Below, piece after piece: positions 1,297-24,914 of a stretch of DNA of 29,271 nt (its first letter is position 1; each line of letters opens with the position of its first letter). Source of the stretch: Candidatus Eiseniibacteriota bacterium (GTDB taxonomy: Bacteria; Eisenbacteria; RBG-16-71-46); the NCBI GenBank assembly GCA_044222045.1, contig JBGAOB010000021.1, positions 1-29,271 on the forward strand, in the 5' to 3' direction. The position numbers and the translations under genes were made by a program. Under the pieces are notes generated by a model. It saw nothing but the letters and a program-made list of their open reading frames with translations. It searched no databases and was not told where the DNA came from.

Positions 1297-2775
1297 TCAG
1301 AACCAGCGCGTGATGCTCACCTTCTTGTCGGTGTAGAACTCGATCGAGTCCTGGCCGTGCGCCTTGAGGTCGCCGAAGAAGCTGCCCTTGGCGCCGCCGA
1401 ACGGAAAGAACGCCATGGGCGCGGCCACGCCGATGTTCACGCCGAGCATGCTGGGCTCGACGTGCCAGCGGTACTCGCGGGCGTACTTGCCGCTGCTCGT
1501 GAAGATGCTGCTCGCGTTGCCGAGGTCGTGCCGCTTCACGATGGCCACGGCTTCCTCGAACGTGTCGGCCTTCATGATGCAGAGCACGGGACCGAAGATC
1601 TCCTCGCGCGCGATCACCATGTCGGGCTTCACGTCCACGAACACGGACGGCCCGAGGAAGTAGCCGTTCGGGTTCTTCGCGTCGGCGTAGCCGCGACCGT
1701 CGAGCGCCAGCTTCGCGCCCTCGGCGACGCCCTTCTCGATGTAGCCGAGCACCTTCTCGCGGTGCGCCTTGCTGATCACCGGGCCCATCGTGACGCCGGG
1801 CTCGAGGCCGTCGCCGACCTTGATCTTCTTCGCCTCGGCCACGAGCTTCTCGACCATCGTGTCGTACGCGCTGCCCACGGCCAGCACCACGCTGTTCGCC
1901 AGGCACCGCTCGCCGGCGCAGCCGAAGCACGACTCGGTGCTCACCTGCGCGGCGCGGTTCATGTCGGCATCGGGCATCACGAGCACGAAGTTCTTCGCGC
2001 CGCCCAGCGCCTGCACGCGCTTCCCGCGCTCGGCGCCGCGCTTGTAGATGTAGTGCGCCACCGGCGAGCTGCCCACGAACGACACGCCGGCGATGCCCGG
2101 GTGGTCGAGGATCGCGTCCACCGAGTCCTTCGCACCGTTCACCATGTTGACCACGCCCTCGGGGAAGCCGGCGTCGTGCAGCAGTTCGAAGATGCGCACC
2201 TGGGACAGCGGCACGCGTTCGCTCGGCTTGACCACGAACGTGTTGCCGCAGGCCACGGCGTGCGGCAGGAACCACAGCGGCACCATGGCCGGAAAGTTGA
2301 ACGGCGTGATCGCCGCGAACACGCCCATCGGCTGGCGGTACGTGTAGCAGTCGATGCCCGTGGCGACGTCCTCGAGCGAGCGGCCCTGCATGAGCGATGG
2401 GATGCCGCACGCCATCTCGACGTTGTCGATCGCGCGGCGCACGCTGCTGCGCGACTCGTCGAGCGTCTTGCCGTGCTCCAGCGTGACGATGCGCGCGACG
2501 TCGTCGAAGTACTTCTCGAACAGCGCGCGCAGCGCGAACAGCGGCCGCACACGGTTCACCGGCGGCGTGGCGCGCCACGCGGGGAACGCCTTCGTCGCGG
2601 CCTGCACGGCGGCGTCGACGTCGGCGGCGCCGCCCATCGGAACGCGCGCCAGCAGCAGGTCGTTCGCGGGATTGCGCACTTCGCCGAACTGCGTGGCGGC
2701 GGAGTCCACCCAGCGGCCTCCGATGTAGTTCTGCACGGTACGGGTGGAGGCTGCGGATCCGGACAGCGTCGCCAT
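1297..2775 (-). CDS. mmsA: Methylmalonate-semialdehyde dehydrogenase (CoA-acylating), aldehyde dehydrogenase superfamily, 492 aa.
   Basis: C-terminal 492 aa of track ORF 1297..5298(-). MATLSGS...VQNYIGGRWV...ITPFNFPAMVPLW...FVGSSPVAHYIY...ESCFGCAGERC...EEIFGPVL...KVSITRWF matches the MMSDH/ALDH signature order. The start ATG at 2773-2775 is preceded by AAAGGGG (gaAAGGGGttcccgcATG). The upstream part of the long track ORF is a GC shadow. Confidence 0.88.
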   Translation of the reverse strand: MATLSGSAASTRTVQNYIGGRWVDSAATQFGEVRNPANDLLLARVPMGGAADVDAAVQAATKAFPAWRATPPVNRVRPLFALRALFEKYFDDVARIVTLEHGKTLDESRSSVRRAIDNVEMACGIPSLMQGRSLEDVATGIDCYTYRQPMGVFAAITPFNFPAMVPLWFLPHAVACGNTFVVKPSERVPLSQVRIFELLHDAGFPEGVVNMVNGAKDSVDAILDHPGIAGVSFVGSSPVAHYIYKRGAERGKRVQALGGAKNFVLVMPDADMNRAAQVSTESCFGCAGERCLANSVVLAVGSAYDTMVEKLVAEAKKIKVGDGLEPGVTMGPVISKAHREKVLGYIEKGVAEGAKLALDGRGYADAKNPNGYFLGPSVFVDVKPDMVIAREEIFGPVLCIMKADTFEEAVAIVKRHDLGNASSIFTSSGKYAREYRWHVEPSMLGVNIGVAAPMAFFPFGGAKGSFFGDLKAHGQDSIEFYTDKKVSITRWF

Positions 2776-3132
2776 GCGGGAACCCCTTTCGTGGATGGAA
2801 CCGGCACGCGGGGCCAGCAGGCACCGCGTCTCCCGGCGGCTCGACTCGAGCGCCGTGCGCCGGGACGGCGCGGCTCGATGGTGGAGAAGTGCGGGGGAGG
2901 ATACAACGGTGGTCCGCGGCGACTGAGTGAAATCTGCCGCTCGATTCGCGGCTCGGGACGCTTCGGGGCCGGCGGGACCGCGCCCGTTCCACCGGCGTGC
3001 GCGCTCGTCCCGACGTGCCCGGGCCGCCCGGCGCGCCGGCGTCCGCGCCCGTCGGAGTGCTCGCCCGGCCCGAAGCCCGTGCAGTAGAGTGCCGCGACTC
3101 GTTCCACCCGCGAACCCACAGGAGAGCGATTC

Positions 3133-5418
3133 ATGGACCGCTCCTCGAGCCCGGCTCCCGCCGTACCGTTCTCGCCCTACATCCCCACGGAAGCCTCGAT
3201 CCGCGAGTTCAGCGCGCGCGGCGTCATCGTGGGCACCTTGCTGGGCCTGGTGTTCGGCGCCTCGTCGCTCTACCTGGTGCTGAAGGTGGGCCTCACGGTG
3301 AGCGCCTCGATCCCGGTGGCGGTGATCTCGATCACGCTGTTCAAGCTGCTGTCCAAGCTCGGCGTCAAGGACGCGACGATCCTCGAGAACAACATCGTGC
3401 AGACCGCGGGCTCCGCGGGCGAATCGATCGCGTTCGGCGTGGGCGTGACGATGCCGGCCATCATGATCCTGGGCTTCGATCTCGAGCTCACGCGCGTGGC
3501 GCTGGTCGCGTGCCTCGGCGCGCTGCTCGGCATCCTGATGATGATCCCTCTGCGCCGCGCGCTGATCGTGCAGCAGCACGGCGTGCTCAAGTACCCCGAG
3601 GGCACCGCGTGCGCCGAAGTGCTCAAAGCCGGCGCCTCGGACGACTCGCGCGCGGCCATGTCGGCCTCGGCGCGCGCCGAGGAAGCGGCGGGCTCGGGCG
3701 CGGGCGTCAACGCGCGCACGATCTTCACGGGCTTCGGGCTGGGCCTGCTGTACAAGACCGCGATGAGCGCGGGGCGGCTGTGGAAGGACGTGCCCGAGAA
3801 GGTGTTCGGCAAGCCGCTCGAGTCGGGCTCGATCGCGGCCGAGATCTCGCCCGAACTGCTCGGCGTGGGCTACATCATCGGGCCCAGGATCTCGGCGGTG
3901 ATGTGCGCCGGCGGCGTGCTCGCGTACCTGCTGCTGATTCCGCTGATCAAGTTCTTCGGCTCGGCGATCCCGGGCCCGCTCGCGCCGGGCACGATCCCGA
4001 TCTCCGAAATGAGCCCGGGGCAGATCCGCGGCGCGTACATCCTGTACATCGGCGCCGGTGCGGTGGCCGCGGGCGGCATCATCAGCCTGGTGCGCTCGCT
4101 GCCGATCATCGTGCACGGCCTGCGCGAGGGCCTGCGCGACGTGCGCGGCGGCAAGGGCGCCGCCAGCGCGCACCGCACCGAGAACGACCTGCCGATGACG
4201 TTCGTGTTCGCGGGCATCGCGGTGCTCATGATCGCGATCCTGCTGGCGAAGCCGCTGCACATGAACCTGCTGGGTGCGGCGATGATCGTCATCTTCGGCT
4301 TCCTGTTCGTCACCGTGTCGTCGCGACTCACGGGCGAGATCGGCTCGTCGTCGAATCCCATCTCGGGCATGACCGTGGCCACGCTGCTGCTGACGTGCCT
4401 GATCTTCCTGGTGGTGGGCTGGGTCGGCGGCGTGTGGTACGTCACCGCGTTGTCGGTCGGCGGCATCGTGTGCATCGCGGCGTCGAACGGCGGCACCACG
4501 AGCCAGGACCTGAAGACCGGCTACCTCGTGGGCGCCACGCCGCGCTACCAGCAGATCGCGATCCTGATCGGCTCCCTGGTTTCGGCGCTCGTGATCGGGC
4601 CGATCCTGCTCAAGCTGAACGACTCGGCCACCGTGTACGTGTCGGTCCAGCAGGTGGCGCCGGCGGGGCTCGCCACCGACGTGACCAAGCTGCCGCCGCG
4701 CATGGAGTCGATCCGCGGCCCGCAGGCCGGGCAGGACGCGAAGGCCTATCACGTGTGGCACAAGATCGACGACGTCGGCGGGCCGGCGGGCAAGTACCTG
4801 GTGGACGACGCCGGCAAGGCGGTGTGGCTGGCGGACCCGGGCATCAACGGCCAGTACGACACGCGCCCCGATGGCAGCACGGTGCGCAAGTTCGACGCGC
4901 CCAAGGCCACGCTCATGTCGTACATCATCCGCGGCATCCTCGACCGCCAGCTGCCGTGGGGGCTCGTGCTGTTCGGCGTGATGATCGCGATCGTGCTGGA
5001 AATGAGCGGCATCCCGTCGCTCGCGTTCGCCGTGGGCGTGTATCTGCCGCTCTCGTCGTCGACGCCGATCCTCGCCGGCGGCGCGGTGCGCTGGCTGGTG
5101 GACCGCGCGCGCAACAAGCAGCTCGAGGGCAAGGGCCTGACCGAAGCGCAGCTCGCGGCGGAGGCCGACAAGAGCCCGGGCGTGCTGATGGCCTCCGGCT
5201 ACATCGCGGGCGGCGCGATCGCCGGCATCGTGATCGCGTTCCTCGCGGGTGCGGCCGACCAGCTCGACTCGCGCATCGCGCACTGGGCCGAGGCGCACAA
5301 CCCGTTCTTCGCGGGCCCGAACGCCGACGTGCTTGCGATGATCCCGTTCGTGGTGATCACGGTGGCGCTGTGGCTGGTGGGCCGCGAGAAGTGGCTGGCG
5401 GGGCCGGCCCGGCGCTGA
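3133..5418 (+). CDS. Oligopeptide transporter, OPT superfamily (bacterial OPT family, 761 aa, polytopic membrane protein).
   Basis: Track ORF 3133..5418(+). The N-terminus ...REFSARGVIVGTLLGLVFGASSLYLVLKVGLTVSASIPVAVISITL is the conserved OPT-family opening, and many TM segments follow. The Shine-Dalgarno is cacAGGAGAgcgattcATG. Confidence 0.88.
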   Translation: MDRSSSPAPAVPFSPYIPTEASIREFSARGVIVGTLLGLVFGASSLYLVLKVGLTVSASIPVAVISITLFKLLSKLGVKDATILENNIVQTAGSAGESIAFGVGVTMPAIMILGFDLELTRVALVACLGALLGILMMIPLRRALIVQQHGVLKYPEGTACAEVLKAGASDDSRAAMSASARAEEAAGSGAGVNARTIFTGFGLGLLYKTAMSAGRLWKDVPEKVFGKPLESGSIAAEISPELLGVGYIIGPRISAVMCAGGVLAYLLLIPLIKFFGSAIPGPLAPGTIPISEMSPGQIRGAYILYIGAGAVAAGGIISLVRSLPIIVHGLREGLRDVRGGKGAASAHRTENDLPMTFVFAGIAVLMIAILLAKPLHMNLLGAAMIVIFGFLFVTVSSRLTGEIGSSSNPISGMTVATLLLTCLIFLVVGWVGGVWYVTALSVGGIVCIAASNGGTTSQDLKTGYLVGATPRYQQIAILIGSLVSALVIGPILLKLNDSATVYVSVQQVAPAGLATDVTKLPPRMESIRGPQAGQDAKAYHVWHKIDDVGGPAGKYLVDDAGKAVWLADPGINGQYDTRPDGSTVRKFDAPKATLMSYIIRGILDRQLPWGLVLFGVMIAIVLEMSGIPSLAFAVGVYLPLSSSTPILAGGAVRWLVDRARNKQLEGKGLTEAQLAAEADKSPGVLMASGYIAGGAIAGIVIAFLAGAADQLDSRIAHWAEAHNPFFAGPNADVLAMIPFVVITVALWLVGREKWLAGPARR

Positions 5419-5439
5419 TCGACACCCGGACGTGCACGA

Positions 5440-5475
5440 GGCCGGGGCGATCGCTCGCCCCGGCCTCGCCGTTTT
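5440..5475. terminator. Bidirectional intrinsic terminator between the convergent OPT and protease genes: GGCCGGGGCGA-tcgc-TCGCCCCGGCC (11-bp perfect stem) followed by a T-run (gttttcgttc).
   Basis: Perfect inverted repeat at 5440-5465 plus a downstream T-tract. It lies between the stop at 5418 (+) and the stop at 5491 (-). Confidence 0.65.
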
Positions 5476-5490
5476 CGTTCGACGTCGCGC

Positions 5491-8400
5491 CTACCGGAGC
5501 TTGATCACCTTGCGCTGATCGACCCGCTCCTCGCAGCGGAAGCGAACGAGGTAGACACCCGGCTCCACGCCGCGGCCCGCCTCGTCGTCGCCCCGCCACT
5601 CGATGCGATGCACGCCCGCGCCGAGCCGGCCGCTCGACAGCGTGCGCACGCGCGCGCCGTGCAGGTCGAACACCTCGATCGTGGCGTCCTGCTCGCGGGC
5701 CAGCTCGAACTGGACCGCGGTCGACGTGCGCACCGGGTTCGGCGACACGCCGCGGAACGCCGTGGCGCCGGTGGGCCGCTCGGGCGCATCCACGCTGCCG
5801 TGCTCGAACTGCAGCAGGTACGTGGCCGTGCGCGGCAGATCGTCGGACGCCACCTTCCACACGGCCACGCAGTAGTAGCCGTTGGAGGGCACGTCCACGA
5901 TGACCGTCTCGCGTTCGTCGTCACCGGCGAGCCACGAGACACCGCCGGGCAGCGCCGTGCTCTTGGACAGGTACGCCACGTCGCTCGGGTGCAGCGTCAG
6001 CCCCAGGTCCACGACGCCCGACACGCCGAACAGGTCGACGCCCCAGCGGCCGGCCGTCAGGTAGACCTCGTACAGGTCGAGGATCTGGTTCGGGCCGATC
6101 GTGTAGTTGCCGTAGCGGCCGTTCGGCGTGCCCAGGTACGTCGAGCCCACGACCTCGGCCCGGTAGGAGCTCGTGCCGGTGCCGTACTTCACCACGCCCA
6201 CGTCGAACGCGCGCCAGGCCGTGATGTTGAAGTTGCCCATCACGTAGTCCGACTGACCGTTGCCGAAGTACGACTGCGCGAGCGGCGTCTCGAAGCCGTT
6301 CTTCGCGCCGGTCGACACTTCATGCAGCCGCGGGTCGAAGTCGCTCGTCGAACCGGTCGGCATGATGGCGAGTGCGCCCCACCAGCCGTAGCTCGAATTG
6401 AACACCGGCGTGCGCAACGCATCGCAGTTCCAGTAGATGGAGCCCGTGGTGCCGTGGTCCCAGCCACCGGTGACCTCCGGCGGTGCGCTGCGCACCGTGG
6501 AGGCGTTCAACGCGAGCGTCGTGGGCGTCCAGGTCCACTGCTCGCCGAACGCGTTGTTGTTCTCCCAGATCTCCTCCTGGTCGTTGTTCGGGTCCTCGAT
6601 CGTCGACAGCGTGTGCCGGCCGCCGCGGACCGTCCACGCGTTCGTCCAGTTGAACAGGCCGACCGCGTGCGCGGGGTAGCTGCCCCACGACAACCACCAC
6701 GAGGATGCGCCGCCGTCCTCGTAGGCCTCCTGGTAGAGCGGCGCCGAAGCCGTGGGGCTCTGGTTGATGTTGCCGAAGTTGAAGTACGTACTCGCCACGT
6801 CGCCCGCGAGCGTCGTGGGCGCCGGCACCGAAGCCCCGGTGCCGTCGGCCGCAGCGCGCGGCACGAACGGCGAGTACCAGCCCGCCGCGGTGTACGGAAC
6901 GAAGTCCGGCGGCGTGCGCTGGATGCGCACGGTGTAGTGCACCGGCGCGGTTCCCGCGTCGAGTTCGCGGTACACCATCAGGCAGTGGTAGCCCGTGTTC
7001 GACACGGTCGCGTCGATGCGCCCGAGGCCGTTCGCGTCGGTCACCGCGGTCCCGGCGAGCGACGACAGAGCGCCGGTGGTGAACGTGCTGTCGAGCCACC
7101 GCATCTTCAGCGGCACGGCGCCCGGGTCGGGGTCGGTCACCTGCACCACGAAGCTCACGGCGCCGACCTGGCTCGCGCCCATGTAGACCTCGAACAGGTT
7201 CATGGACGAGCCGCTGGCCATGGTCGCCGCGTAGGTGGAGTTGAAACCGATCCCCAGGCTTCGCACGTGCTCGTAGTTGTAGTCGGAGATCCCGCCGTCC
7301 CAGTTGACCACGCCCACGTCCCACGTGGTGTAACCGACCACGTTGCGGTTCACGAGCACGGCGTCCAGCTCACCCACGCGGCTCGACCACTGCGTGTAGG
7401 TGTCGAAGCCGTTCGCGGGGCCGGTCGAGGCCGTGTGCAGCCGCAGGTCGTAGTCCACCGACGTGTCGGTGGGGCGCAGCGTGATCGCGTTCCACCAGCC
7501 CGACGTGGTGAAGCGCAGGCCGTCGGCGTTGTACTGGAGCGTGGATCCGTCGACGACGTTGCTCCAGCCGGCGGTGCGGTGACGCGGCGCGAAGCGGCTC
7601 GTCACGGCGGCGCCCGTCACGTCCATCGGCGACCAGATCCACTGGTGCCCCCAGGCGTTGTCGCCTTCGTTCGTCTCGGCGATCTCGTCGGCCGCGTCGT
7701 GCACCACCGAGAACGTGTGCCGTCCGCCGCGAACGCTGATCGGTCCCTGGTTCGGGGCGTAGTAGAGGCCCCCGGCACCGATCGCGCCCCACGACACCCA
7801 CATCTGCCATTCGTCGTCGGCGAACACGCGCGCCTGGAAGCCCGTGCCCGTGCTCTGCTCGCCGTTGTTCGTGCCGCCCATGTTCCAGTACGTCGACGAC
7901 GTGTTGCCGGTCAACGACGTGGGCGGCGGGCAGCTGCCGAGCGTGGCGTCGTTCGTCGGTCGCGGCACGACCGGCGTGGTCCAGCCGCTGAACAGGTGGT
8001 AGGTCAGGTTCGCGGGCACCGGCGTGCGGACGATGAACGGGCCCCACGAAGCGTAGCTGCCGCTCCAGCGACCGGCGCGGTCCACCGCGCGGATGTTGAA
8101 CCAGTACGTGCCGGGGGTCAGCGAGCTGGTGGTGAAGCTGGTGACGTTGCCGATGTTCTGGGTCGCCGCCGGCATCGCCGGCCCGCCCGCGGTCACGGAC
8201 ACGCCGTAGCCGCCCACGCCCGACCAGTCGTCGGTCGCGCGCGTCCAGTGCAGGTCGACGGTCGGATCGGGGGAGCTCACGCCGATCGTGTGCGACGTCG
8301 ACGCCAGGCCGGTCACCGCGCCCGGCGCGGTCGCGTCGATCTCGAAGGCGTTGTTCTTCGCCGTCTCCCAGAGGTTCTCCTTGTAGCCGGGATAGCGAGT

Positions 8401-9936
8401 GCCGAACGCCGTGAAGAACGTGGCCGGCGTGGTGCAGCCGTCCAGGTCGGTGACCGTGAAGATCTCGTCGAACCCGAGGCTCAGCCGGTCGCGCCACGTG
8501 CCGGGCGCGAGCGGATCGTCCTCGTTCGACGAGTCCCAGATGTCCTGCAGCACCGCGCCGAGGAAGCCCTCGGTGCGCCACACGTCGTCGAGCGACGTGC
8601 TGCAGTTCTGGATCGACTCGCTGTCGCGCGTGTTGACGGCAGCGACGCCGTACAGCGCACCGTATTCCGACGTCTGCACGTGCGCGATCCAGTTCGGCCA
8701 GCCCTCGGCCCACGCATCGTGGTCGGTCTCGCGGCACCACATGCAGTGCCCGCAGTTCGGAGGCGAGTCGCAGATGCCGTTGCAGTAGTCGGGCGGCAGC
8801 GACGAGCCGTAGCCGGCGATGAAGTGGTGGCCGTACTCGTGGGACTGCGAGTCCTCGCGCCACTGGCGGTCGGTGCCGATGTGGATGGCGCCGTTGTAGT
8901 AGGCGCCGCTCGCGCCGTCCGGCCAGTACACGTCGATCGCCGACAGCGAGTAGCCCTCGTTGACGACGTACCAGCGCCACTGGCGGCTCATGTCGGTGAT
9001 GATCATCACCGCGGGCTGGTCGGCCTCGGCCGCGGGCCACAGCCAGCCGTAGTCGAGGTCGGTGCCCGTGTAATCGCCCGTCGTGCCGGTGGTCCAGCTG
9101 TAGGCGCCGGCCCCGAACGTGGTGCTCTTGACGCTGAAGCGGCCGTTCGCCGCCTCGAACGTGAGGTACAGATCGGGCTCCGCGTCGCAGAACACGGCGC
9201 ACGGGTTCCAGAAGAACGTGATGTCGTACCAGCCCTGGGCGTCGGTGATGCCGGTGGCCAGCAGTTCGGATCCGAACGGCGAGTCGTTGTCGTACACGCG
9301 CACGGTCACGCCGTCCGCGCCGATGTCGATGCCGTCGCCGCGCGTGAACAGGAAGCGTCCGTGCACGCGGATGTTGCGCGCCTGCACGACTTCCGTCTTG
9401 CTCGCGCCGGGGTCGGCGCCGCGCGCGCGGCGCTGTGCTTCGGTCGGCTGCGGCGGCGCGGGCGCCGGCTCCAGCCGCATCATCTCCGCCGGTGCGGGCC
9501 GCGCGAGCGGATCGACCGTGCCGCGCGCCACGAGCTTGCCGGGCTCGAGCCAGCGCCGCACGGAGGCGGCCGAGAGGTCCAGTTCGCGTGTCATCGGCAC
9601 GCCGTCGGCCTCGTAGTGCACGACGAGCGGTTCGTCGTCACGCGAGGGCTTCACCACGAACGGCACGTCCACCGTACCGCCCTTGGCGAGCGTGGCGAGC
9701 AGGCCGTCCACCGACACCACGGACCAGCCGTCGCCTTTCAGTTCCAGGTTCGACAGTCGCAGCGGTGCACCCACCGTGAAGCGCAGCGTGCCCGCGAACT
9801 CCTGGCCCGCCACCGCGGCACGCGGTGCGCCCAGGAGGGTCACTTCCACCGGCGGCTTCACGTCGGCCCGGGCCGGCCGTACGCCGACCAGGACGAACGC
9901 CGCGAGGCACGCCAGCGCGATCCAGCGCTTTCGCAT
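5491..9936 (-). CDS. Large secreted modular protein (1481 aa). It has a signal peptide, an N-terminal beta-sandwich domain, a putative zinc-metallopeptidase region (SHEYGHHF HEXXH motif followed by a Cys-rich segment), an FN3-like domain, and two tandem modules each made of a CARDB-like domain plus a second beta domain. It ends in a C-terminal T9SS-type (Por_Secre_tail / FlgD-Ig-like) sorting domain.
   Basis: Track ORF 5491..9936(-), whose ATG is preceded by GAGGAGG. The signal peptide is MRKRWIALACLAAFVLVGVRPARA. HEYGHH lies at aa 366-371 with CNGICDSPPNCGHCMWC downstream. The FN3-like signature is TPGTYWFNIRAVDRAGRWS. CARDB-like ends are DAADEIAETNEGDNAWG and DPNNDQEEIWENNNAFG. The C-terminus NPVRTSTAVQFEL...VFDLHGARVRTL...GVYLVRFR...KVIKLR matches the T9SS CTD consensus. 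Confidence 0.85.
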   Translation of the reverse strand: MRKRWIALACLAAFVLVGVRPARADVKPPVEVTLLGAPRAAVAGQEFAGTLRFTVGAPLRLSNLELKGDGWSVVSVDGLLATLAKGGTVDVPFVVKPSRDDEPLVVHYEADGVPMTRELDLSAASVRRWLEPGKLVARGTVDPLARPAPAEMMRLEPAPAPPQPTEAQRRARGADPGASKTEVVQARNIRVHGRFLFTRGDGIDIGADGVTVRVYDNDSPFGSELLATGITDAQGWYDITFFWNPCAVFCDAEPDLYLTFEAANGRFSVKSTTFGAGAYSWTTGTTGDYTGTDLDYGWLWPAAEADQPAVMIITDMSRQWRWYVVNEGYSLSAIDVYWPDGASGAYYNGAIHIGTDRQWREDSQSHEYGHHFIAGYGSSLPPDYCNGICDSPPNCGHCMWCRETDHDAWAEGWPNWIAHVQTSEYGALYGVAAVNTRDSESIQNCSTSLDDVWRTEGFLGAVLQDIWDSSNEDDPLAPGTWRDRLSLGFDEIFTVTDLDGCTTPATFFTAFGTRYPGYKENLWETAKNNAFEIDATAPGAVTGLASTSHTIGVSSPDPTVDLHWTRATDDWSGVGGYGVSVTAGGPAMPAATQNIGNVTSFTTSSLTPGTYWFNIRAVDRAGRWSGSYASWGPFIVRTPVPANLTYHLFSGWTTPVVPRPTNDATLGSCPPPTSLTGNTSSTYWNMGGTNNGEQSTGTGFQARVFADDEWQMWVSWGAIGAGGLYYAPNQGPISVRGGRHTFSVVHDAADEIAETNEGDNAWGHQWIWSPMDVTGAAVTSRFAPRHRTAGWSNVVDGSTLQYNADGLRFTTSGWWNAITLRPTDTSVDYDLRLHTASTGPANGFDTYTQWSSRVGELDAVLVNRNVVGYTTWDVGVVNWDGGISDYNYEHVRSLGIGFNSTYAATMASGSSMNLFEVYMGASQVGAVSFVVQVTDPDPGAVPLKMRWLDSTFTTGALSSLAGTAVTDANGLGRIDATVSNTGYHCLMVYRELDAGTAPVHYTVRIQRTPPDFVPYTAAGWYSPFVPRAAADGTGASVPAPTTLAGDVASTYFNFGNINQSPTASAPLYQEAYEDGGASSWWLSWGSYPAHAVGLFNWTNAWTVRGGRHTLSTIEDPNNDQEEIWENNNAFGEQWTWTPTTLALNASTVRSAPPEVTGGWDHGTTGSIYWNCDALRTPVFNSSYGWWGALAIMPTGSTSDFDPRLHEVSTGAKNGFETPLAQSYFGNGQSDYVMGNFNITAWRAFDVGVVKYGTGTSSYRAEVVGSTYLGTPNGRYGNYTIGPNQILDLYEVYLTAGRWGVDLFGVSGVVDLGLTLHPSDVAYLSKSTALPGGVSWLAGDDERETVIVDVPSNGYYCVAVWKVASDDLPRTATYLLQFEHGSVDAPERPTGATAFRGVSPNPVRTSTAVQFELAREQDATIEVFDLHGARVRTLSSGRLGAGVHRIEWRGDDEAGRGVEPGVYLVRFRCEERVDQRKVIKLR

Positions 9937-9946
9937 GGCAGCCTCC

Positions 9947-10486
9947 TCAGCGCGACGGGGTGACGGTGGGGGCGGGGCGCTTCTCGGGGTTCACGGGCAC
10001 CACGGGGTGCAGGATCCCGTCGATGACCTTGGCCAACTGCTGCGCGTCGGCCGTGCGGCCTTCCTTCTGGGCCCAGCGGAACTGGATGCGCAGCATCTCG
10101 AGCTCGGTGTCCTGCTTCATCTGCTGAAGCTCGGCCTGCAGCGCGAGCGTGGCGGCCGCGTCCGTCTTGGCCGCCGCGAGCTGCTTGCGCTTGAGCGTCA
10201 TCGCCTGGTCGCGCGCGTCCAGGTAACCGAGAAGCTCCGTCATCATCGGCGTGAGCCGGTGCGCCGGCTGGCGCACCAGCGGCGTCACGAGCGGCGGCTG
10301 CGCGACGGTGCCCTGGATCTCGTCGGCGTTCTCGGGGATCGCCGGCAGCGCGGACACCTTCGGCGGCTGCTGCGACGATCCGCTCGCGGTGGGCGCCACG
10401 CGCTCGGCGGCGAGCGCCGCCGTGGCGAGCGCCAGCGCGGCGATCAGCAGCACGAGCAGCGAAGCGAAGGGAAGGGACTTCGGCAT
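9947..10486 (-). CDS. Small secreted alpha-helical / coiled-coil protein (179 aa), possibly a Spy/CpxP (LTXXQ)-like periplasmic protein.
   Basis: Track ORF 9947..10486(-). The signal peptide is MPKSLPFASLLVLLIAALALATAALAA and the SD is ccGGAGGtacgccATG. The helical Q/A/K/E-rich core is ...RLTPMMTELLGYLDARDQAMTLKRKQLAAAK...LQAELQQMKQDTELEMLRIQFRWAQKEG. The stop lies 10 nt before the protease ATG, so it is probably co-transcribed. The Spy/CpxP assignment is low confidence. Confidence 0.6.
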   Translation of the reverse strand: MPKSLPFASLLVLLIAALALATAALAAERVAPTASGSSQQPPKVSALPAIPENADEIQGTVAQPPLVTPLVRQPAHRLTPMMTELLGYLDARDQAMTLKRKQLAAAKTDAAATLALQAELQQMKQDTELEMLRIQFRWAQKEGRTADAQQLAKVIDGILHPVVPVNPEKRPAPTVTPSR

Positions 10487-10544
10487 GGCGTACCTCCGGG
10501 TTGGGTGGGGGACCGGGTCCGAGGCGCGGCGACTCCGCCGCGGT

Positions 10545-11003
10545 TCAGCGGGGTGGATGCGGGGAGACGCCGGCGGGCCCTCGGGCCCGCTCGACCGCCT
10601 CGGGAGAGAGAACGAATTCCTTGCGAAGCCACTGGCGCGCGGCCTTCACCTGCAGCACGAGCGGCCGGTGCACGTCGCCGGGAGTCGCGCGGAACGAGAC
10701 GCTCCAGCGCTCGCCCGCGCGCAGCGTTCGCGGCAGCCGCGGCGCGAAACGCCCGATGCGCCAGCGCTCGCCGGACAGGCTCAGCGAGTCCACGGTGAGC
10801 GCCACGCCGGAGCGCAGCTCGAACGTGCCCGTGAACGCGCGCCCGGTGCGCGCGGCGCGCGGGGGGCCGCAGATGACCACTTCGACGGCGGGGCGCACGT
10901 CGGCGTGCGCCGGGTACGCCGGCACCAGCATCGGCGCGAGCACGCACACGAGGAGTGCGGCGCCGATGTCGCGGAGGGGGAACGCTGCGGGCGTGGTTCC
11001 CAT
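10545..11003 (-). CDS. Small secreted beta-sandwich protein (~152 aa), a standalone paralog of the N-terminal domain of the 5491..9936 protease.
   Basis: Track ORF 10545..11111(-), trimmed to Met37 at 11003, which gives the signal peptide MGTTPAAFPLRDIGAALLVCVLAPMLVPAYPAHA (gAAAGGccgtcgcATG). The mature part DVRPAVEVVICGPPRAARTGRAFTGTFELRSGVALTVDSLSLSGERW... aligns at ~30% identity with DVKPPVEVTLLGAPRAAVAGQEFAGTLRFTVGAPLRLSNLELKGDGW... of the protease. Confidence 0.6.
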   Translation of the reverse strand: MGTTPAAFPLRDIGAALLVCVLAPMLVPAYPAHADVRPAVEVVICGPPRAARTGRAFTGTFELRSGVALTVDSLSLSGERWRIGRFAPRLPRTLRAGERWSVSFRATPGDVHRPLVLQVKAARQWLRKEFVLSPEAVERARGPAGVSPHPPR

Positions 11004-11241
11004 GCGACGGCCTTTCGAAAGGCGCGGCGGCGGCGCGACCGCCGGTCGGTCGCGCGGTCGGGGGTTCGCGCCGTTCATGGGACGCCCGGATCGGTGCTTC
11101 GTCACGGACAATCTTCACGTGCTCCGGCCGGAGGGCGCTGGAAAGCGGTGTTCGTGCGGTGTGAAGAATGCCCGCGTCCGGTTGTCGCGGGCAGCGGTTT
11201 CGTCGCAGCATGCGTCGACTGGCCGATCGCGAGGAGGACAC

Positions 11242-12144
11242 GTGAGCGAAGCGTCCGGGCGGGGGCGCGGTCCGTGGAGGGTGCTTCGCCCGCTGGTGGG
11301 GATCGCGCTGGCGTGCACCGTGGCGAACGGAGCGTTCGCGGTGCCGGCGCGCGGCACGGTGCAGCGGCTGACGATGGCCGCCCCGAGCGTGGGCGACGAC
11401 GCGCGCACCGTGCGCGTGTACCTGCCGCCTTCGTACTTCACGCCGGAGGCCGCCGCGCGAACCTATCCCGTGATCGTGCTGCTGCACGGCTGGCCCGGGT
11501 CCGACGGCAACTGGTTCGAGATGGGGCACGCGCCGGACACCGCGGACTCGCTGATCGCGCGCGGTGCGATTCCCGAGGTGATCCTGGTGTGCCCGAACGG
11601 CGCCGGCGCCGGTGTGCTCGGGCGTTCGTACTGGATCGACTCGTGGGATGGACGCAAGCGGCTCGAGACGTACGTCGTGCACGACCTGGTCGCGTGGATC
11701 GACGCGCACTACCGCACGCGGCGCACACCGCAGGGTCGCGCCTTGATCGGCCTGTCGGAAGGCGGCGACGCGGCCGTGAACCTCGCGTTCCGGCACCCCG
11801 ACGTGTTCTCGGCGTGCGGCGCGCACAGCGCCGACTACGTGCTGCGCAAGGGTTTCGGCACCGGCGGCATCACGGGCCCCGAGCCGGGTGCGTCACGCCT
11901 GCTGCGCGAGAACAGCCCCGCGGAGTACGTCGACCAGGTGGTCGAGCGCGCGAAACGGCTGACGATCTACCTGGACTGCGGCACGGGCGACGAGTCGATC
12001 GGCGACAGCCGCGCGTTCCATCTCCGGCTGCAGGAACTGGGCGTGCCGCACGCGTGGCACGAATGGCCCGGCTCGCACACGTGGAGCTACTGGGGCACCC
12101 ACCTGCGAGATTCGCTGCTGGTGGTGGCGAACGCGCTGCGGTGA
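11242..12144 (+). CDS. Secreted alpha/beta-hydrolase of the 'putative esterase' family (esterase D / enterochelin-esterase-like fold), 300 aa.
   Basis: C-terminal 300 codons of track ORF 10501..12144(+). The start is a GTG at 11242 behind GAGGAGG (cGAGGAGGacacGTG). The N-terminus is signal-like (RVLRPLVGIALACTVANGAFA), and the motifs VIVLLHGWPGS and GLSEGG (GxSxG nucleophile) are present, followed by a conserved esterase C-terminal region. The exact start is moderately uncertain; an ATG at MAAPSVGDD is an alternative. Confidence 0.7.
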   Translation: MSEASGRGRGPWRVLRPLVGIALACTVANGAFAVPARGTVQRLTMAAPSVGDDARTVRVYLPPSYFTPEAAARTYPVIVLLHGWPGSDGNWFEMGHAPDTADSLIARGAIPEVILVCPNGAGAGVLGRSYWIDSWDGRKRLETYVVHDLVAWIDAHYRTRRTPQGRALIGLSEGGDAAVNLAFRHPDVFSACGAHSADYVLRKGFGTGGITGPEPGASRLLRENSPAEYVDQVVERAKRLTIYLDCGTGDESIGDSRAFHLRLQELGVPHAWHEWPGSHTWSYWGTHLRDSLLVVANALR

Positions 12145-12205: not shown

Positions 12206-13753
12206 TCAGTGCGCGTTGCCGCGATCGTGTGCCGAAACGACCTTGTCGAGCGGACGGCTCATCACGAACAGCACCAGCCCCGCGACGACGCCGATCCCCA
12301 GCATCAGGTAGAAGAAGTTCTCCTTCGGCATGGTCTCGTAGAACGTTCCGAGGTAGCCGGCCATGTAGTTGCCGATGAAGTTCGCGAGGAACCAGACGCC
12401 CATCATCATCGAGACGATGCGAGCGGGGGAGACCTTGGTCACGAACGAGAGACCGATCGGCGAGAGGTAGAGCTCCCCGATCGTGAACACGGCGGTCGAG
12501 CCGAAGAGCCAGATCAGGTTGCGCTTCGCGTCGGGCGCCATGCCGTGAGCGGCGACCACCAGGATGGCGAAGCCCAGGCCCAGGAGCGTGCAGCCGATCG
12601 CCATCTTCACGAGGCTCGAGGGCTCCTGGTTGCGCTTGGACTGCCAGTTCCAGAGCCCGATGAGCGCCGGCGTGAAGAACCAGATCATGAACGGGTTGAA
12701 CGCCTGGTACCACGTGGTCGGGATGGTGAAGCCGAACAGCTTCGGCCAGTGCGTGTTCTGGTCGGCCCAGACCTGGAGCGTGTTGCCCTGCTGCTCGTAC
12801 ACGGCCCAGAAGGCCGCCACGATGAAGCAGGCCACGAAGATCGCGATCACGCGCGGCCGTTCGTCGCGTGGCAGGCGGACGAGCCAGACCACGAGCGCGA
12901 GCAGGACGAGCCCCGCGAGGATGCCGCGCACCACGAGCGGCAGCGTCATCACGTAGAGCAGCCCGAAGATCATGAGCGTCACGCCGACCAGGTAGACCGC
13001 CACGCCCGCGATCGGCGCGGACTTCGACGGCGTCGGCGGGGGCTCGTCGGGCAGGTAGCGCTGGAACATCACGTAGCTGATCAGCCCGAGCACCATGCCC
13101 ACGCCGGCGGCGGCGAAGCCCCAGTGCCAGTGCTGGACGCCGTTGATGCTGGTCTGCCCCAGCGTGCCGCAGATCATCGGCGCGAGGAACGCGCCGACGT
13201 TGATACCGATGTAGAAGATCGAGAACGCGCTGTCCCTCCGATGATCGCCCTCGGGATAAAGCTTGCCGACCTGCGTCGAGATGTTCGGCTTGAAGCAGCC
13301 GTTGCCGAGGATCAGGAACATCAGCGCGGGGAAGAACAGGTTCTCCATCGCCATCAGGAAATGCCCGATCGCCATGAGCACGCCGCCGACGATCACGGCC
13401 CAGCGCCGGCCGAGCACGCGATCGGCGAGCAGTCCGCCGAAGAACGGCGTCAGGTAGACGAAGGCCGTGTAGAGGCCGTAGACCCACGACTGGAGCGGCT
13501 GGGGTGTCCACGCGTTGCCGAAGAGTCCCTGGAACACGTGGGTCACGTAGTCGAAGCCGAGCACCTTGGCGCCGACGTCGGGCTTCACGAACAGGAAGTT
13601 CAGCATGTAGAGCGACAGCAGCGCCCGCATGCCGTAGTAGCTCATGCGCTCCCACATCTCGGCGAAGAACAGCACGAACAGTCCGCGAGGGTGTCCGAGC
13701 CACGTGTCCGTGGACTTGGGCGCGGTCGCGGGCGGCGCGGTGGCGTTGGCCAT
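12206..13753 (-). CDS. Proton-dependent oligopeptide transporter (POT/PTR2 family, DtpT-like di/tripeptide:H+ symporter, MFS), 515 aa.
   Basis: C-terminal 515 aa of track ORF 12206..14020(-), trimmed to MANATAPP at 13753. The PTR2 signatures are GLFVLFFAEMWERMSYYGMRALL and FGGLLADRVLGRRWAVIVGG, and there are ~12 TM segments. Confidence 0.88.
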   Translation of the reverse strand: MANATAPPATAPKSTDTWLGHPRGLFVLFFAEMWERMSYYGMRALLSLYMLNFLFVKPDVGAKVLGFDYVTHVFQGLFGNAWTPQPLQSWVYGLYTAFVYLTPFFGGLLADRVLGRRWAVIVGGVLMAIGHFLMAMENLFFPALMFLILGNGCFKPNISTQVGKLYPEGDHRRDSAFSIFYIGINVGAFLAPMICGTLGQTSINGVQHWHWGFAAAGVGMVLGLISYVMFQRYLPDEPPPTPSKSAPIAGVAVYLVGVTLMIFGLLYVMTLPLVVRGILAGLVLLALVVWLVRLPRDERPRVIAIFVACFIVAAFWAVYEQQGNTLQVWADQNTHWPKLFGFTIPTTWYQAFNPFMIWFFTPALIGLWNWQSKRNQEPSSLVKMAIGCTLLGLGFAILVVAAHGMAPDAKRNLIWLFGSTAVFTIGELYLSPIGLSFVTKVSPARIVSMMMGVWFLANFIGNYMAGYLGTFYETMPKENFFYLMLGIGVVAGLVLFVMSRPLDKVVSAHDRGNAH

Positions 13754-13876
13754 GCGGGGGCCCTCGGTGTTGGGTGTGGGTCGGGAAACGGTCCGGCAGG
13801 ATAGTCGGGTCGGCTCGGCTCGCGCCACGAAAACCGGGTGGGCGCGTGGGGAGGGAGCACGGGCGTTTCGATCGAC

Positions 13877-13919
13877 GGACACCGGTGCTCCGATCGCAGG
13901 ACACCGGCGCTTCGATCGC
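13877..13919. promoter_or_regulatory. Tandem imperfect 21-bp direct repeat GGACACCGGTGCTCCGATCGC / GGACACCGGCGCTTCGATCGC (22-bp periodicity) in the divergent intergenic region between the POT transporter and pepT. Candidate operator.
   Basis: Read directly in the sequence. There are 2 mismatches between the copies, which contain the palindromic cores ACCGGT and CGATCG. They sit ~125 nt upstream of the POT start and ~200 nt upstream of the pepT start. Confidence 0.4.
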
Positions 13920-14120
13920 CCCGTGTCGTACTTCGCCCGCGCGCGGGTCCCGTCGCGTGCCGCCGCCTCGCCCCCCGGCCACCGGCACGCTCTCGCCCGC
14001 GCGCGGTCGAAGCACGCCACGGGGCCGGGGCGGCGCCGGCGCGCGGCGGTGATCCGGGGGGTTGCCTCGGCCGTTCGGCGCGTCTAGCGTGCCCGGCGGA
14101 CGCTCGCCCAGGAGATTCCC

Positions 14121-15377
14121 ATGACCCCCGCCGTCGCCGGCCGCACCTCGGTGCTGGATCGCTTCCTCCACTACGTCACGTACGACACCCAGGCCGATCC
14201 CGAATCGACCTCGATCCCGAGCACGACGAAGCAGTTGCTGCTGCTGGACCGGCTCGTGGAGGAGCTGAAGCAGCTCGGCATCGCCGACGCGGTGCGCGAC
14301 GAGTTCGGCATCGTGATGGCGACGCTGCCCGCCACCCCCGGGCGCGAGTCGCGACCGGTGATCGGGTTGCTCGCCCACGTGGACACGTCGCCCGAGATGA
14401 GCGGCGCCGACGTGCGGCCGATCGTTCACCACAACTGGGACGGCCGGGACATCGTGCTGCCCGACGATCCGAGCGCCGTGCTGCGGCCCTCGGAAGACCG
14501 TGAGCTGGCGGCCAAGCAGGGCGAGGACGTGATCACCGCGTCGGGCGCCACGCTGCTCGGCGCCGACGACAAGTCGGGCGTCGCGGTGATCATGGCCGCG
14601 GTCGAGTACCTGCTCGCGCACCCGGAGATCCCGCACGGGCCGGTGCGCGTGGCGTTCACGCCCGACGAGGAGATCGGTCGCGGCGTGAAGAAGTTCGACG
14701 TGGCGCGATTCGGCGCGCACTGCGCGTACACGCTCGACGGCGAAGGCCTGGGCAGCCTCGACGTGGAGACGTTCTCCGCCGACTCGATGACCGTGACGTT
14801 CCAGGGTTTCAACACGCACCCGGGGCTCGCCACGGGCAAGATGGTGAACGCGATCAAGCTGGCCGCGGACTTCGTGAGCCGGCTGCCGCGCAACGGGATG
14901 GCGCCCGAGACCACGGGCGGGCGCGACGGCTTCGTGCACCCGAACGTGGTGGACGCCAGCGTCGACCGCACGTCCGTGCGCTTCATCGTGCGCGACTTCC
15001 GCACCGAGGGTCTGAAGGAGAAGGAGGACTTCCTCGAACGACTGGCGCGCGAGACCGTGGCCGTGTGGCCGGGCTCGTCGGTGTCGTTCGAGGTGCGCGA
15101 GTCGTACCGCAACCCGCGCGAAACGCTCGAGAAGTTCCCGGCGATCGTGGACAACGCGCGCGAGGCGATCCGGCGCGTGGGACTGGAGCCGGTCGAGACG
15201 GCGATCCGCGGCGGCACCGACGGCTCGCTGCTGACGGCGATGGGGCTGCCGACGCCGAACCTGTTCTCGGGCCAGCACAACTTCCATTCGCGGCTCGAGT
15301 GGATCACGGCGCAGGACCTGGAGCGTTCGGTGGCGATGGTGGTGGAACTGCTCCGCGTGTGGGACGAGCGCGGCTGA
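14121..15377 (+). CDS. pepT: Peptidase T (tripeptide aminopeptidase), M20B family, 418 aa.
   Basis: Track ORF 14121..15377(+). The sequence RFLHYVTYDTQADPES...GLLAHVDTSPE...GADDKSGVAVIM...FTPDEEIG...GGTDGS carries the M20 metal-ligand motifs in PepT order. The SD is cccAGGAGattcccATG. Confidence 0.88.
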   Translation: MTPAVAGRTSVLDRFLHYVTYDTQADPESTSIPSTTKQLLLLDRLVEELKQLGIADAVRDEFGIVMATLPATPGRESRPVIGLLAHVDTSPEMSGADVRPIVHHNWDGRDIVLPDDPSAVLRPSEDRELAAKQGEDVITASGATLLGADDKSGVAVIMAAVEYLLAHPEIPHGPVRVAFTPDEEIGRGVKKFDVARFGAHCAYTLDGEGLGSLDVETFSADSMTVTFQGFNTHPGLATGKMVNAIKLAADFVSRLPRNGMAPETTGGRDGFVHPNVVDASVDRTSVRFIVRDFRTEGLKEKEDFLERLARETVAVWPGSSVSFEVRESYRNPRETLEKFPAIVDNAREAIRRVGLEPVETAIRGGTDGSLLTAMGLPTPNLFSGQHNFHSRLEWITAQDLERSVAMVVELLRVWDERG

Positions 15378-16830: not shown

Positions 16831-16987
16831 CGTTTCCGGGCGTGCGTGCGGACCGCGCGTCAGCGCATGAGCATGAGCTTGCGCGTCTCGGTGACGACTT
16901 CGGTGGCGCCGGGGCCGTGTCGTTTCCCGGCGTGCGTGCGGACCGCGCGTCAGCGCATGATCATGATCTTGCGCGTCTCGGTGACGC
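16807..16987. repeat. Tandem direct duplication of 2 x 90 bp with 3 mismatches. It covers the last 12 codons of the BNR gene plus ~55 bp of its 3' flank, including one arm of the terminator hairpin.
   Basis: Copy 1 (16807-16896) and copy 2 (16897-16986) are ACTTCGGTGGCGCCGGGGCCGTGTCGTTTCC[G/C]GGCGTGCGTGCGGACCGCGCGTCAGCGCATGA[G/T]CATGA[G/T]CTTGCGCGTCTCGGTGACG. Copy 2 carries the real stop and C-terminus ...TETRKIMIMR*. Copy 1 would encode ...TETRKLMLMR* as a remnant. Confidence 0.85.
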
Positions 16988-18680: not shown

Positions 18681-18882
18681 GGGTGTGCCCTCCGGATTCG
18701 TGGCGGGATGTCGACCGGAAGGGTAAAGGCCGCGCGCGCCGAACGGGGAGCGGTTTTGGACCAGCGGGCGGGCGCGCCGACGGGGCGACCGGCGTGCGGG
18801 AGCCGCGATGTCTTCGCGCGGGGGTCGCCTCCGGCCGAGGAGCGCGGGCGGAAAGGGCCGCGCGGCCACCGCCCGGCCGCAC

Positions 18883-18918
18883 GAAGCCGCGGGCGCGATG
18901 TTCCGCACCCGCGGCTTC
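18883..18918 (-). terminator. GC hairpin GAAGCCGCGGG-(14 nt)-CCCGCGGCTTC, 16 nt downstream of the stop of the PPC-repeat gene. It has no U-tract, so it is a candidate terminator or RNA-stability element.
   Basis: Perfect 11-bp inverted repeat. It sits between the stop at 18934 and the BNR gene start at 18680. Confidence 0.35.
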
Positions 18919-20676: not shown

Positions 20677-21107
20677 GGGGATCTCCCGATGGAAGGGGCG
20701 CAGCGGGGGGGCCGGCGCCGTGAGGACGAGGGGGTTCCTGCGTGCGGATCGAGTGCGAACCCGGGGCGCCGCGACCACCGGCCGATGCCGGCGTTGCGAA
20801 GCGCCCTGCCTGTCCATGCGTGGAACCGGGTCCGAAACCCTCACGGCCCGGGACGAGGCCGTGAAGCATTCGAGCAAACGGTGGACGGCCTCCGCAATGA
20901 TTCGTTTGCGGTGATTCCCACCGCTGCGCGCGTGAACACGGACGGCAAACCGAGCGGCCGTTCTCGCGGCGAGATCCGGCGCATTTCGGCTCGCACGTAG
21001 CGGGCGAGGTGATCGCGGCTTCGCGTACGCGGTGAGCGGCTCGCCCGGAAACGAAACCGCGCCGTCGTGGCGTGCACGGCGGCGCGGCGTGTTCGCCCAG
21101 GGCGGCG

Positions 21108-24500: not shown

Positions 24501-24784
24501 CGCGACGGCTCCCGCGGGGCGCGGCCCCGTGTGGACGTGGGCGGCAGGTGGGTGTGAGCCGGGGGAATCTAGCGTGTCGCGTTCCCGCCCCGCCAGCCGC
24601 GCCCGGGCTGTCGGGGCCGCGCCGGCAGACGCTTCCGCGTTCGTCCGAGTCCGGGTGCGTGTCCCGGCGATGCTGCGCCCGACGCCGAACGAGCGTCGCC
24701 ACCCCGAACCGCGCGCCCCGCGGCGTCGCGCGAACGCCGCGCCGGCCGCCCCGGGATCGCCGAACGACGTGCGGCGAATGCGAT

Positions 24785-24799
24785 GTCCGAATCCGTCCG
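24785..24799 (+). promoter_or_regulatory. Copy 1 of an exact 15-bp motif GTCCGAATCCGTCCG, 116 nt upstream of the small secreted-protein gene at 24915. Candidate shared operator / promoter element.
   Basis: Exact 15-mer, identical to 25489-25503. A 15-mer recurring by chance in 29 kb is highly improbable. Confidence 0.45.
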
Positions 24800-24914
24800 C
24801 ATTTCGTCGCCGGCCGGCATTTCGACCATCGCGTGCACCCCGTAGGTTCGTGCTCGTCGACACGCCGCGAAAGCCGCAACGATCCCCGCATCATCCGTCG
24901 TCGGAGGTTTCCTC

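Follow-up and report, generated by a model that had tools for sequence, protein, structure and literature searches.

Introduction

In some bacteria, a protease gene adjoins the gene for a specific inhibitor, whose proposed role is to shield the producing cell from the protease (PMC2873492). In Streptococcus pyogenes, Spi is co-transcribed from a gene beside speB and is an analogue of the protease's own propeptide, and related pairs are formed by staphopain with staphostatin and by the Bacteroides proteins Bfp and Bfi, some Bfi being predicted to be periplasmic (PMC2873492). Here we describe a locus for which SpeB-Spi appears to be the nearest precedent in its logic, located in a Candidatus Eiseniibacteriota contig (JBGAOB010000021.1 of assembly GCA_044222045.1, positions 1-29,271 of the forward strand; this whole stretch of 29,271 nucleotides, with a GC content of about 70%, is referred to as the window). 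Three minus-strand genes, designated A (10545-11003), B (9947-10486) and C (5491-9936), encode two exported proteins of 152 and 179 aa and a 1481-aa multidomain secreted protein predicted to be a metalloprotease. We report that C represents a new protease sequence family, B a new family of partner proteins, and A a clade-specific, prodomain-like paralog of the N-terminal domain of C, and we propose functions for A and B.

As with SpeB and Spi, the gene for a secreted protease lies beside a small gene whose product is homologous to the part of the protease in the pro-region position, A being 37% identical to the N-terminus of C in the window, and 33-39% identical in the corresponding comparisons in four other lineages. 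The SpeB, staphopain and Bfp enzymes differ in being cysteine proteases (families C10 and C47), and Spi and the staphostatins are cytoplasmic, whereas C has a predicted thermolysin-fold metalloprotease domain. The locus also differs from speB-spi in that A copies an immunoglobulin-like (Ig-like) sandwich that is at most a putative propeptide, and in the presence of an additional helical partner, B, which is the more widely conserved of the two small proteins.

Comparisons can also be drawn with proteases exported by means of a type IX secretion system (T9SS). Gingipains of the RgpB type are organised like C, in that an N-terminal domain follows the signal peptide and precedes the catalytic domain, with Ig-like domains and a C-terminal sorting domain after it, but they belong to Bacteroidota and are cysteine proteases. 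In RgpB the prodomain, a beta-sandwich, is an inhibitor of the enzyme and acts in trans as well in vitro, and we know of no separately encoded prodomain copy or cargo-specific helical partner gene described for T9SS proteases of this type. AprI/Inh (MEROPS I38) is a small Sec-exported protein encoded in the same operon as a serralysin zinc protease and thought to protect the periplasm; it is a beta-barrel unrelated to its protease, which is a metzincin that uses type I secretion, and we found no relation in sequence or fold between AprI/Inh and either A or B. There is a resemblance to the zymogens of thermolysin and LasB (family M4), which carry FTP-PepSY propeptides, but these enzymes have only about 10% sequence identity to C, which lacks any Pfam match to Peptidase_M4, FTP or PepSY, has an unrelated Ig-like domain as its N-terminal region and a Cys-rich insert between the HEXXH and Glu helices, is five times larger, and carries a T9SS tag in place of type II secretion.

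Results

C represents a new sequence family with a predicted thermolysin fold

C begins with a signal peptide, judged by inspection to be MRKRWIALACLAAFVLVGVRPARA with cleavage ahead of DV, which is followed by a family-specific Ig-like beta-sandwich (residues 25-135, minus strand 9532-9864; mature start DVKPPVEV), here called the N-domain. A linker (residues 136-185, 9382-9531) joins this to the predicted catalytic domain (residues 186-530, 8347-9381), such that the Ig-like domain and linker sit between signal peptide and catalytic domain, where thermolysin-type enzymes have their propeptide. Residues 1-540 were modelled with AlphaFold2, giving an overall predicted local distance difference test score (pLDDT) of 77.9 and a predicted template modelling score of 0.78, with pLDDT values of 80-93 for the N-domain. 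The linker was delimited from the secondary structure and pLDDT of this model, in which the ~25 residues after the N-domain form a helix, two beta bridges and one strand (MMRLEP, residues 152-157), the bridges and strand falling within residues ~138-157 at a pLDDT of about 69-75, and residues 160-183 are a disordered, Pro/Ala-rich segment. In the catalytic region, the model and fold searches with it reveal the two-lobe fold of thermolysin.

The conserved residues are consistent with this assignment. The sequence HEYGH (residues 366-370, minus strand 8827-8841) corresponds to a zinc-binding and catalytic HEXXH motif, and H366, E367 and H370 are nearly invariant among 19 homologs that are 23-46% identical to C. 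Glu411 (8704-8706, minus strand), within an AEGWPNW helix, is a candidate third zinc ligand, and resembles the NEGF/NEA glutamate of the M1 and M4 enzymes; both E411 (helix 405-423) and E403 are nearly invariant among homologs. The motifs kept in homologs of residues 1-540, over the same range of identities, are HEYGHH, CNGICD...CGHCxWCxE, EGWPxW and TEGFxAxxLRDIxD. The second of these lies in a Cys-rich insert between the HEXXH and Glu helices (C385, C389, C395, C398 and C401; 8734-8782), to which nothing in thermolysin is equivalent. In a 10-sequence alignment (insert motif CNGICD...CGHCxWC) the cysteines C385, C389, C398 and C401 never vary and C395 hardly varies, and the insert could form disulfides or a second metal site.

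The remainder of C is modular, all on the minus strand. Residues 541-640 (8017-8316) are FN3-like, with PDB profile matches to FN3 and weak Pfam matches to Big_13 and Y_Y_Y, and residues 641-1390 (5767-8016) comprise a pair of internal repeats (641-1005 and 1006-1390), each about 365 aa long, that are 35% identical to each other (E=4e-52). Each repeat consists of a CARDB-like part and a domain of ~240 aa without assignment, and a PDB search with the first repeat gave no match. A C-terminal sorting domain of T9SS type A occupies residues 1397-1481 (5494-5748). This tail (residues 1397-1479) scores 33.8 bits against TIGR04183 (cutoff 23) and 34.9 bits against Pfam FlgD_ig (cutoff 27), and 20.1 bits against Pfam Por_Secre_tail, below its cutoff of 27.

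No peptidase family in Pfam (M4, M36, M1, M6 and others) or in NCBIfam matched C at E<=1; these libraries recognise only the sorting domain and one CARDB domain (residues 689-761), and a PDB profile search with C returned FN3 domains only. Because no peptidase model matches, though the structural model is thermolysin-like, we regard C as a new sequence family with a known fold, and predict that it is a zinc endopeptidase of the thermolysin (gluzincin) type. Current domain libraries miss this family of proteases. A reading of the window from its letters alone (the sequence-only reading) had described C as a giant T9SS-tagged metalloprotease, and this description holds at the level of prediction for the activity, given the HEYGH motif, the modelled zinc-metalloprotease fold and the TIGR04183 match above cutoff.

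B is the widely conserved partner of long forms of C

Using a search alignment of 10 sequences and one genome per species, we identified 59 loci encoding C homologs. Non-planctomycete loci account for 27 of these (two cut at a contig edge) and derive from Eisenbacteria, Krumholzibacteriota, metagenome-assembled genomes (MAGs) labelled Fibrobacteraceae, and unclassified genomes, the taxon labels being those of the MAG depositors; the closest relative of the window's contig is a Candidatus Eisenbacteria MAG. All of the long C homologs in this group have two repeat modules and a T9SS-type tail. A hidden Markov model (HMM) of B places a B gene directly upstream of C on the same strand in 24 of the 25 informative non-planctomycete loci, and likewise in locus L010; in the 25th informative locus, L024, B lies just downstream of C. 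In most of them, 75-86 nt separate the stop codon of B from the point where the N-domain begins, which corresponds to a B-C intergenic gap of only about 5-20 nt.

Two loci with a B gene have unusual contexts. In L010 (4710-9069) the C homolog P0013, of 755 aa, stops within the first repeat and is followed by two Y2-type transposase genes, and is probably a long form truncated by insertion, with the upstream B retained. A B-C cassette with a T9SS-type tail (L030) is on a contig of a Nocardioides (Actinomycetota) MAG, which most likely reflects a binning error.

The pairing extends to paralogs. One Krumholzibacteriia MAG (JBGPIA01) has five diverged B-C cassettes (L016, L024, L025, L029 and L069), each with its own B, in which the C proteins are 35-51% identical and the B proteins 25-47%. 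CAYNPY01 and CAZUEM01, two further MAGs, each contain two cassettes. B was copied along with C, and the two diverge in parallel: over 26 cassettes the pairwise identities of B and C are correlated (r=0.71, Mantel p~5e-4).

The ~30 loci of Planctomycetota have a different arrangement. Their C homologs have the N-domain, the catalytic domain and often FN3, lack the repeat modules, and end in dockerin-like Asp-rich repeats (L036-L038, L042, L056-L059, L062 and L063 are among the loci with such ends). B was not found in any of them in the HMM census, and a search beside these genes found neither a B-like nor any other conserved small partner. It turned up only pairs in which a Ser/Thr kinase bearing TPR or WD40 repeats accompanies a planctomycete-type extracytoplasmic function (ECF) sigma factor, and such pairs adjoin about 9-11 of the loci.

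Short forms of C, of 673-813 aa, have neither B nor the two repeat modules. The 813-aa form nonetheless has a sorting-type tail, and this weakens the proposition that B simply tracks the T9SS tag. In three of the short homologs (L007, L008 and L009; 673-677 aa) the C-terminus is a hydrophobic segment with basic residues behind it, similar to a PEP-CTERM anchor, and in L009 (8302-8736) a gene for an exosortase (EpsH) is just downstream. With these PEP-CTERM-like forms, the same catalytic core is joined to three different sorting signals in different lineages.

The sequence-only reading had described a module of three genes, and had named a lack of conserved synteny as grounds for abandoning it. 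Synteny is conserved: B-C pairs are found across several candidate phyla, and the full A-B-C order in four lineages besides that of the window. Of the two small proteins, B is the partner of C with wide conservation, and A is limited to a single clade.

A appears to be an old, retained duplicate of the N-domain

Protein A consists of a signal peptide (residues 1-34, minus strand 10902-11003) and a standalone paralog of the N-domain together with the short helix that follows it (residues 35-145, 10569-10901), and matches the N-domain HMM at E=8e-22. With BLASTP, A and C are 37% identical over 122 residues (E=3e-16), somewhat above the ~30% over ~100 residues of the sequence-only reading. Residues 18-139 of A align with residues 8-128 of C, so that the duplicated stretch comprised signal peptide, N-domain and the short helix that comes next.

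Fold matches to the N-domain are generic Ig-like structures, including the macroglobulin MG domain, the transglutaminase C-terminal barrel, the adaptin ear and PapD-like domains, and the only sequence or profile match in the PDB is a weak one to a transglutaminase C-terminal barrel (E=0.016). No Pfam family, CARDB and DUF11 included, matched any of 14 N-domain or A sequences at E<=1, and NCBIfam likewise gave nothing meaningful for A. An exhaustive profile search of 1.84 billion representatives gave 351 clusters, and in the best 150 of these 351 the N-domain spans roughly residues 20-160 of proteins that are mostly 1400-1800 aa long, and is almost exclusively N-terminal in the C protease family. 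Many of the short matches are fragments that run on into the catalytic region, and the N-domain is present in every examined C homolog with an intact N-terminus. The possibility that similarity between A and C reflects only a widespread CARDB/DUF11-type fold, which the sequence-only reading had named as one that would refute its claim, is thus not realised, given that there is no Pfam match and that the domain is nearly confined to the C family.

A word-indexed homolog search with A recovered a single close relative and none of the distant orthologs, which emerged from the exhaustive profile search. The orthologs are P0002, P0040, P0043, P0048 and P0055, the last four of which are the true A orthologs among the short N-domain matches, and end where A ends. 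They share the A-specific motifs D[ST]LRLxGExWRIxRF and a PGSVxP tail. In the five A-bearing lineages the A orthologs are 40-52% identical to each other and only 33-39% identical to their cognate N-domains, which points to one old duplication that has been retained. Standalone N-domain genes were found, within 6 kb on either side of the loci, only in the clade in which C is at least 59% identical to that of the window. The A-B-C order is present in the close relative, in L070, in L071/72 and in L073-75, with different flanking genes in each; on the contigs of the distant A orthologs the genes, whose identities were confirmed by HMMs, are separated by gaps of 78, 25 and -19 nt. We also considered that A might be a lineage-specific accident, and rejected this because A-B-C recurs in three further contexts.

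Relative to the closest relative, the ratio of nonsynonymous to synonymous substitution rates (dN/dS) of A is 0.46 overall, 0.28 for the mature part and 1.8 for the signal peptide. The old duplication, the A-specific motifs, the value for the mature part and the recurrence of A-B-C together indicate that A is a maintained gene. In L071 (9086-9565) and L073 (3694-4173), two of the five A-bearing lineages, the N-domain of C has lost the usually conserved Trp of a GxGW motif (GDPAAV and GDPAKV, respectively), and the A copies retain it (GDGWRI and GEGWRI). This loss in cis and retention in trans may reflect a division of roles between the two copies.

B is a member of an unannotated helical family

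B has a signal peptide of ~27 aa and then a disordered Pro/Ala-rich arm with a conserved (L)PEN-x-AEI motif, followed by a three-helix bundle (residues 80-159, minus strand 10010-10249; AlphaFold2 pLDDT >90) and an extended conserved tail (residues 160-179, 9950-10009) of the form P-x8-R-P-A-P, in which P161 and R170 are nearly invariant. Searches of Pfam, NCBIfam and the PDB gave no relatives of B. Specifically, the LTXXQ/CpxP, Metal_resist and OmpH models of Pfam had no match at E<=1 to B and 11 homologs, and a PDB profile search with the family gave no sequence match. Foldseek with the B model returned generic helical bundles, none of them significant (best E=0.3; ZraP, 3lay, E=4.1), and Spy, CpxP and Skp are absent among the 50 PDB matches listed. 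By these searches B constitutes an unannotated family. The sequence-only reading of B as an exported, all-helical protein agrees with the model, but the LTP..E motif and the likeness to Spy and CpxP that it had drawn attention to do not stand up, since the Pfam, PDB and Foldseek results are negative and only the Pro of LTPMM is nearly invariant across the family alignment.

The sequence RPAP occurs in the tail of B (EKRPAPT), in the linker of C (LARPAPAE; 9466-9531) and in the tail of A in L071. This may be coincidental in a high-GC genome rich in Pro, Ala and Arg, although a [DE]RPxP version in B is also kept in lineages of lower GC content.

Organization of the A-B-C locus and its surroundings

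A, B and C have the coordinates and strand given in the sequence-only reading, as do their gaps of 58 nt and 10 nt and the ribosome-binding site that overlaps the preceding stop. In the A-B spacer (10487-10544, minus strand) a GGAGG ribosome-binding site is 7 nt ahead of the B ATG, and in the B-C spacer (9937-9946, minus strand) a second GGAGG overlaps the B TGA stop just ahead of the C ATG. GC content at third codon positions in the three frames is 0.88-0.96, of coding type and as in the contig's other real genes. Each protein has a Sec-type signal peptide by inspection, ending at AHA/DVRP in A, ALAA/ERV in B and ARA/DVKP in C. Between A, B and C, scanning of the coding (minus) strand turned up nothing that resembles a terminator, and a 14-bp GC-rich hairpin (5437-5468) lies between the C stop and the convergent gene for an OPT oligopeptide transporter; this is likely to be a bidirectional terminator and the end of the unit. 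On account of the short gaps, the coupled ribosome-binding sites, the lack of an internal terminator and the hairpin after C, the genes look like a single transcription unit, as had been proposed for this co-directional set. The promoter presumably lies in the divergent intergenic region between A and a putative esterase gene (11004-11226), the limit of which was set with an esterase start estimated from a 305-aa ortholog.

The OPT transporter gene (3133-5418, plus strand) is convergent with C, and the putative esterase gene (11200-12144, plus strand) diverges from A. Beyond the esterase are genes for a POT/PTR2 transporter (12206-14020, minus strand) and an M20 peptidase (14121-15377, plus strand); an M20 peptidase also adjoins A-B-C in L070. 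These peptide-uptake neighbours fit a possible protein-foraging role for C. Two further proteins with FlgD_ig/T9SS-type tails, one with a PPC pre-peptidase domain, are encoded at 16950-18908 and 18934-21207 (minus strand), so that the organism appears to have several such cargo proteins. The rest of the window includes a class I aminoacyl-tRNA synthetase with DUF5915 (21108-24863, minus strand), an SPFH/Band 7 protein (27214-29271, plus strand) and an aldehyde dehydrogenase (1297-2856, minus strand), and no sign of mobile elements was seen in this housekeeping context.

Discussion

We propose, with moderate confidence, that C is controlled or escorted ahead of export by A and B, acting as its partners in the periplasm. 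According to this proposal, C would enter the periplasm by the Sec pathway, and its C-terminal sorting domain would direct its exit through a T9SS that we presume to be functional. A and B each have a Sec signal peptide but lack a sorting domain, so that they are expected to remain periplasmic and would meet C only in transit. B would be the ancestral, cassette-specific partner of long forms of C, binding C in the periplasm and keeping it latent, export-competent, or both until handover to the secretion machinery; the strict one-to-one pairing of B with long-form C suggests a specific physical partnership. A would be a later, clade-restricted duplicate of the C signal peptide, N-domain and following helix that supplies the N-domain in trans, and may occupy the docking site of the N-domain on either the catalytic domain or B. 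We infer, rather than observe, that A and B reside in the periplasm, that they bind C and inhibit or chaperone it, and that the N-domain is cleaved. A more speculative version, which we put forward tentatively and consider doubtful, is that B (with A in one clade) would be the first known case of a periplasmic partner specific to one cargo of type IX secretion: duplicated with each protease paralog, B would hold folded C latent, possibly by placing a conserved disordered arm (the P-x8-RPAP tail) in the active-site cleft, and then hand it to the secretion machinery, with A acting as a trans prodomain copy that tunes the handover.

Several observations weigh against a role of A and B in latency or escort. 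Both evolve faster than C, with dN/dS values relative to the closest relative of 0.46 for A and 0.36 for B versus 0.13 for C. A ends before the linker segment of C (~138-157) that is modelled as a packed strand and, if that strand blocks the cleft, A would be without the blocker and could not be a simple active-site plug. The N-domain is a generic Ig-like fold, not an FTP or PepSY propeptide, and could be a permanent binding domain. Both the Planctomycetota homologs and the short forms possess this N-domain and this catalytic domain yet have no B, so B is not needed to fold or silence the core as such. The occurrence of B tracks the repeat modules, the sorting domain and lineage equally, and these factors are inseparable. 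NCBI taxonomy sets phyla of the Eisenbacteria and Krumholzibacteriota type outside the Fibrobacteres-Chlorobi-Bacteroidetes (FCB) group, and our literature search found no paper tying Eisenbacteria or Krumholzibacteria to T9SS. Finally, a scan found no sigma-70 consensus promoter for the unit, although this is uninformative in a genome of 70% GC from a candidate phylum.

The main rival to latency or escort stems from the same distribution. As homologs that share the catalytic core do without B, it may serve the repeat modules rather than the active site, and A and B would then be accessory subunits of the working enzyme, B assembling or stabilising the repeats and A providing a substrate- or surface-binding Ig module. 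The exact co-occurrence of B with the repeats of residues 641-1390, and its absence where these are missing and the N-domain and catalytic domain are the same, is what would be expected, and the N-domain has a generic Ig-like fold of adhesin or macroglobulin type. The OPT, POT and M20 neighbours suggest protein foraging, for which binding modules would be useful. The one-B-per-C pairing in paralogous cassettes fits accessory subunits and latency equally. However, every secreted protein in the window bears a sorting domain except A and B, and it is hard to explain how they would exit with C; we consider accessory subunits unlikely.

It is also conceivable that A is a neutral leftover from a partial duplication of the 5' end of C, and that only B and C matter. 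A is restricted to one clade and B-C is widespread, and A is the fastest-evolving of the three proteins, most of all in its signal peptide. Yet in five lineages with differing flanks A still has an intact frame and a signal peptide and still lies upstream of B, and these lineages are diverged, C being only 59-71% identical among them, B 45-56%, and A diverged to the extent given above. The low dN/dS of mature A and the A-specific motifs conserved in its orthologs point the same way, and make a neutral leftover quite improbable.

That B is a general periplasmic chaperone of the Spy/CpxP/ZraP or Skp-like type lying beside C by chance is very improbable and largely refuted: B is exported, all-helical and Q/K/E/A-rich, ZraP is among its Foldseek matches, and in Flavobacterium the T9SS translocon includes a homolog of Skp (PMC10994853), but nothing Skp-like is seen in B, its modelled three-helix bundle is not a cradle, the chaperone models fail to match any of 12 family members, no fold match is significant, LTP is not conserved, and one duplicate per protease paralog would not be expected of a general chaperone.

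The C protease family appears to be abundant in uncultured phyla, including Eisenbacteria, Krumholzibacteriota and Phycisphaerae, and profile models for the three families could annotate hundreds of records now described as hypothetical proteins. The linkage of B to the protease is unusually strict, B lying beside each paralog and diverging in parallel with it. If A and B do control the latency or export of C, then the idea of a protease paired with an inhibitor resembling its own propeptide would extend from Gram-positive cysteine proteases to metalloproteases that transit the periplasm, and the locus would provide the first example of a helper dedicated to a single cargo in type IX secretion.

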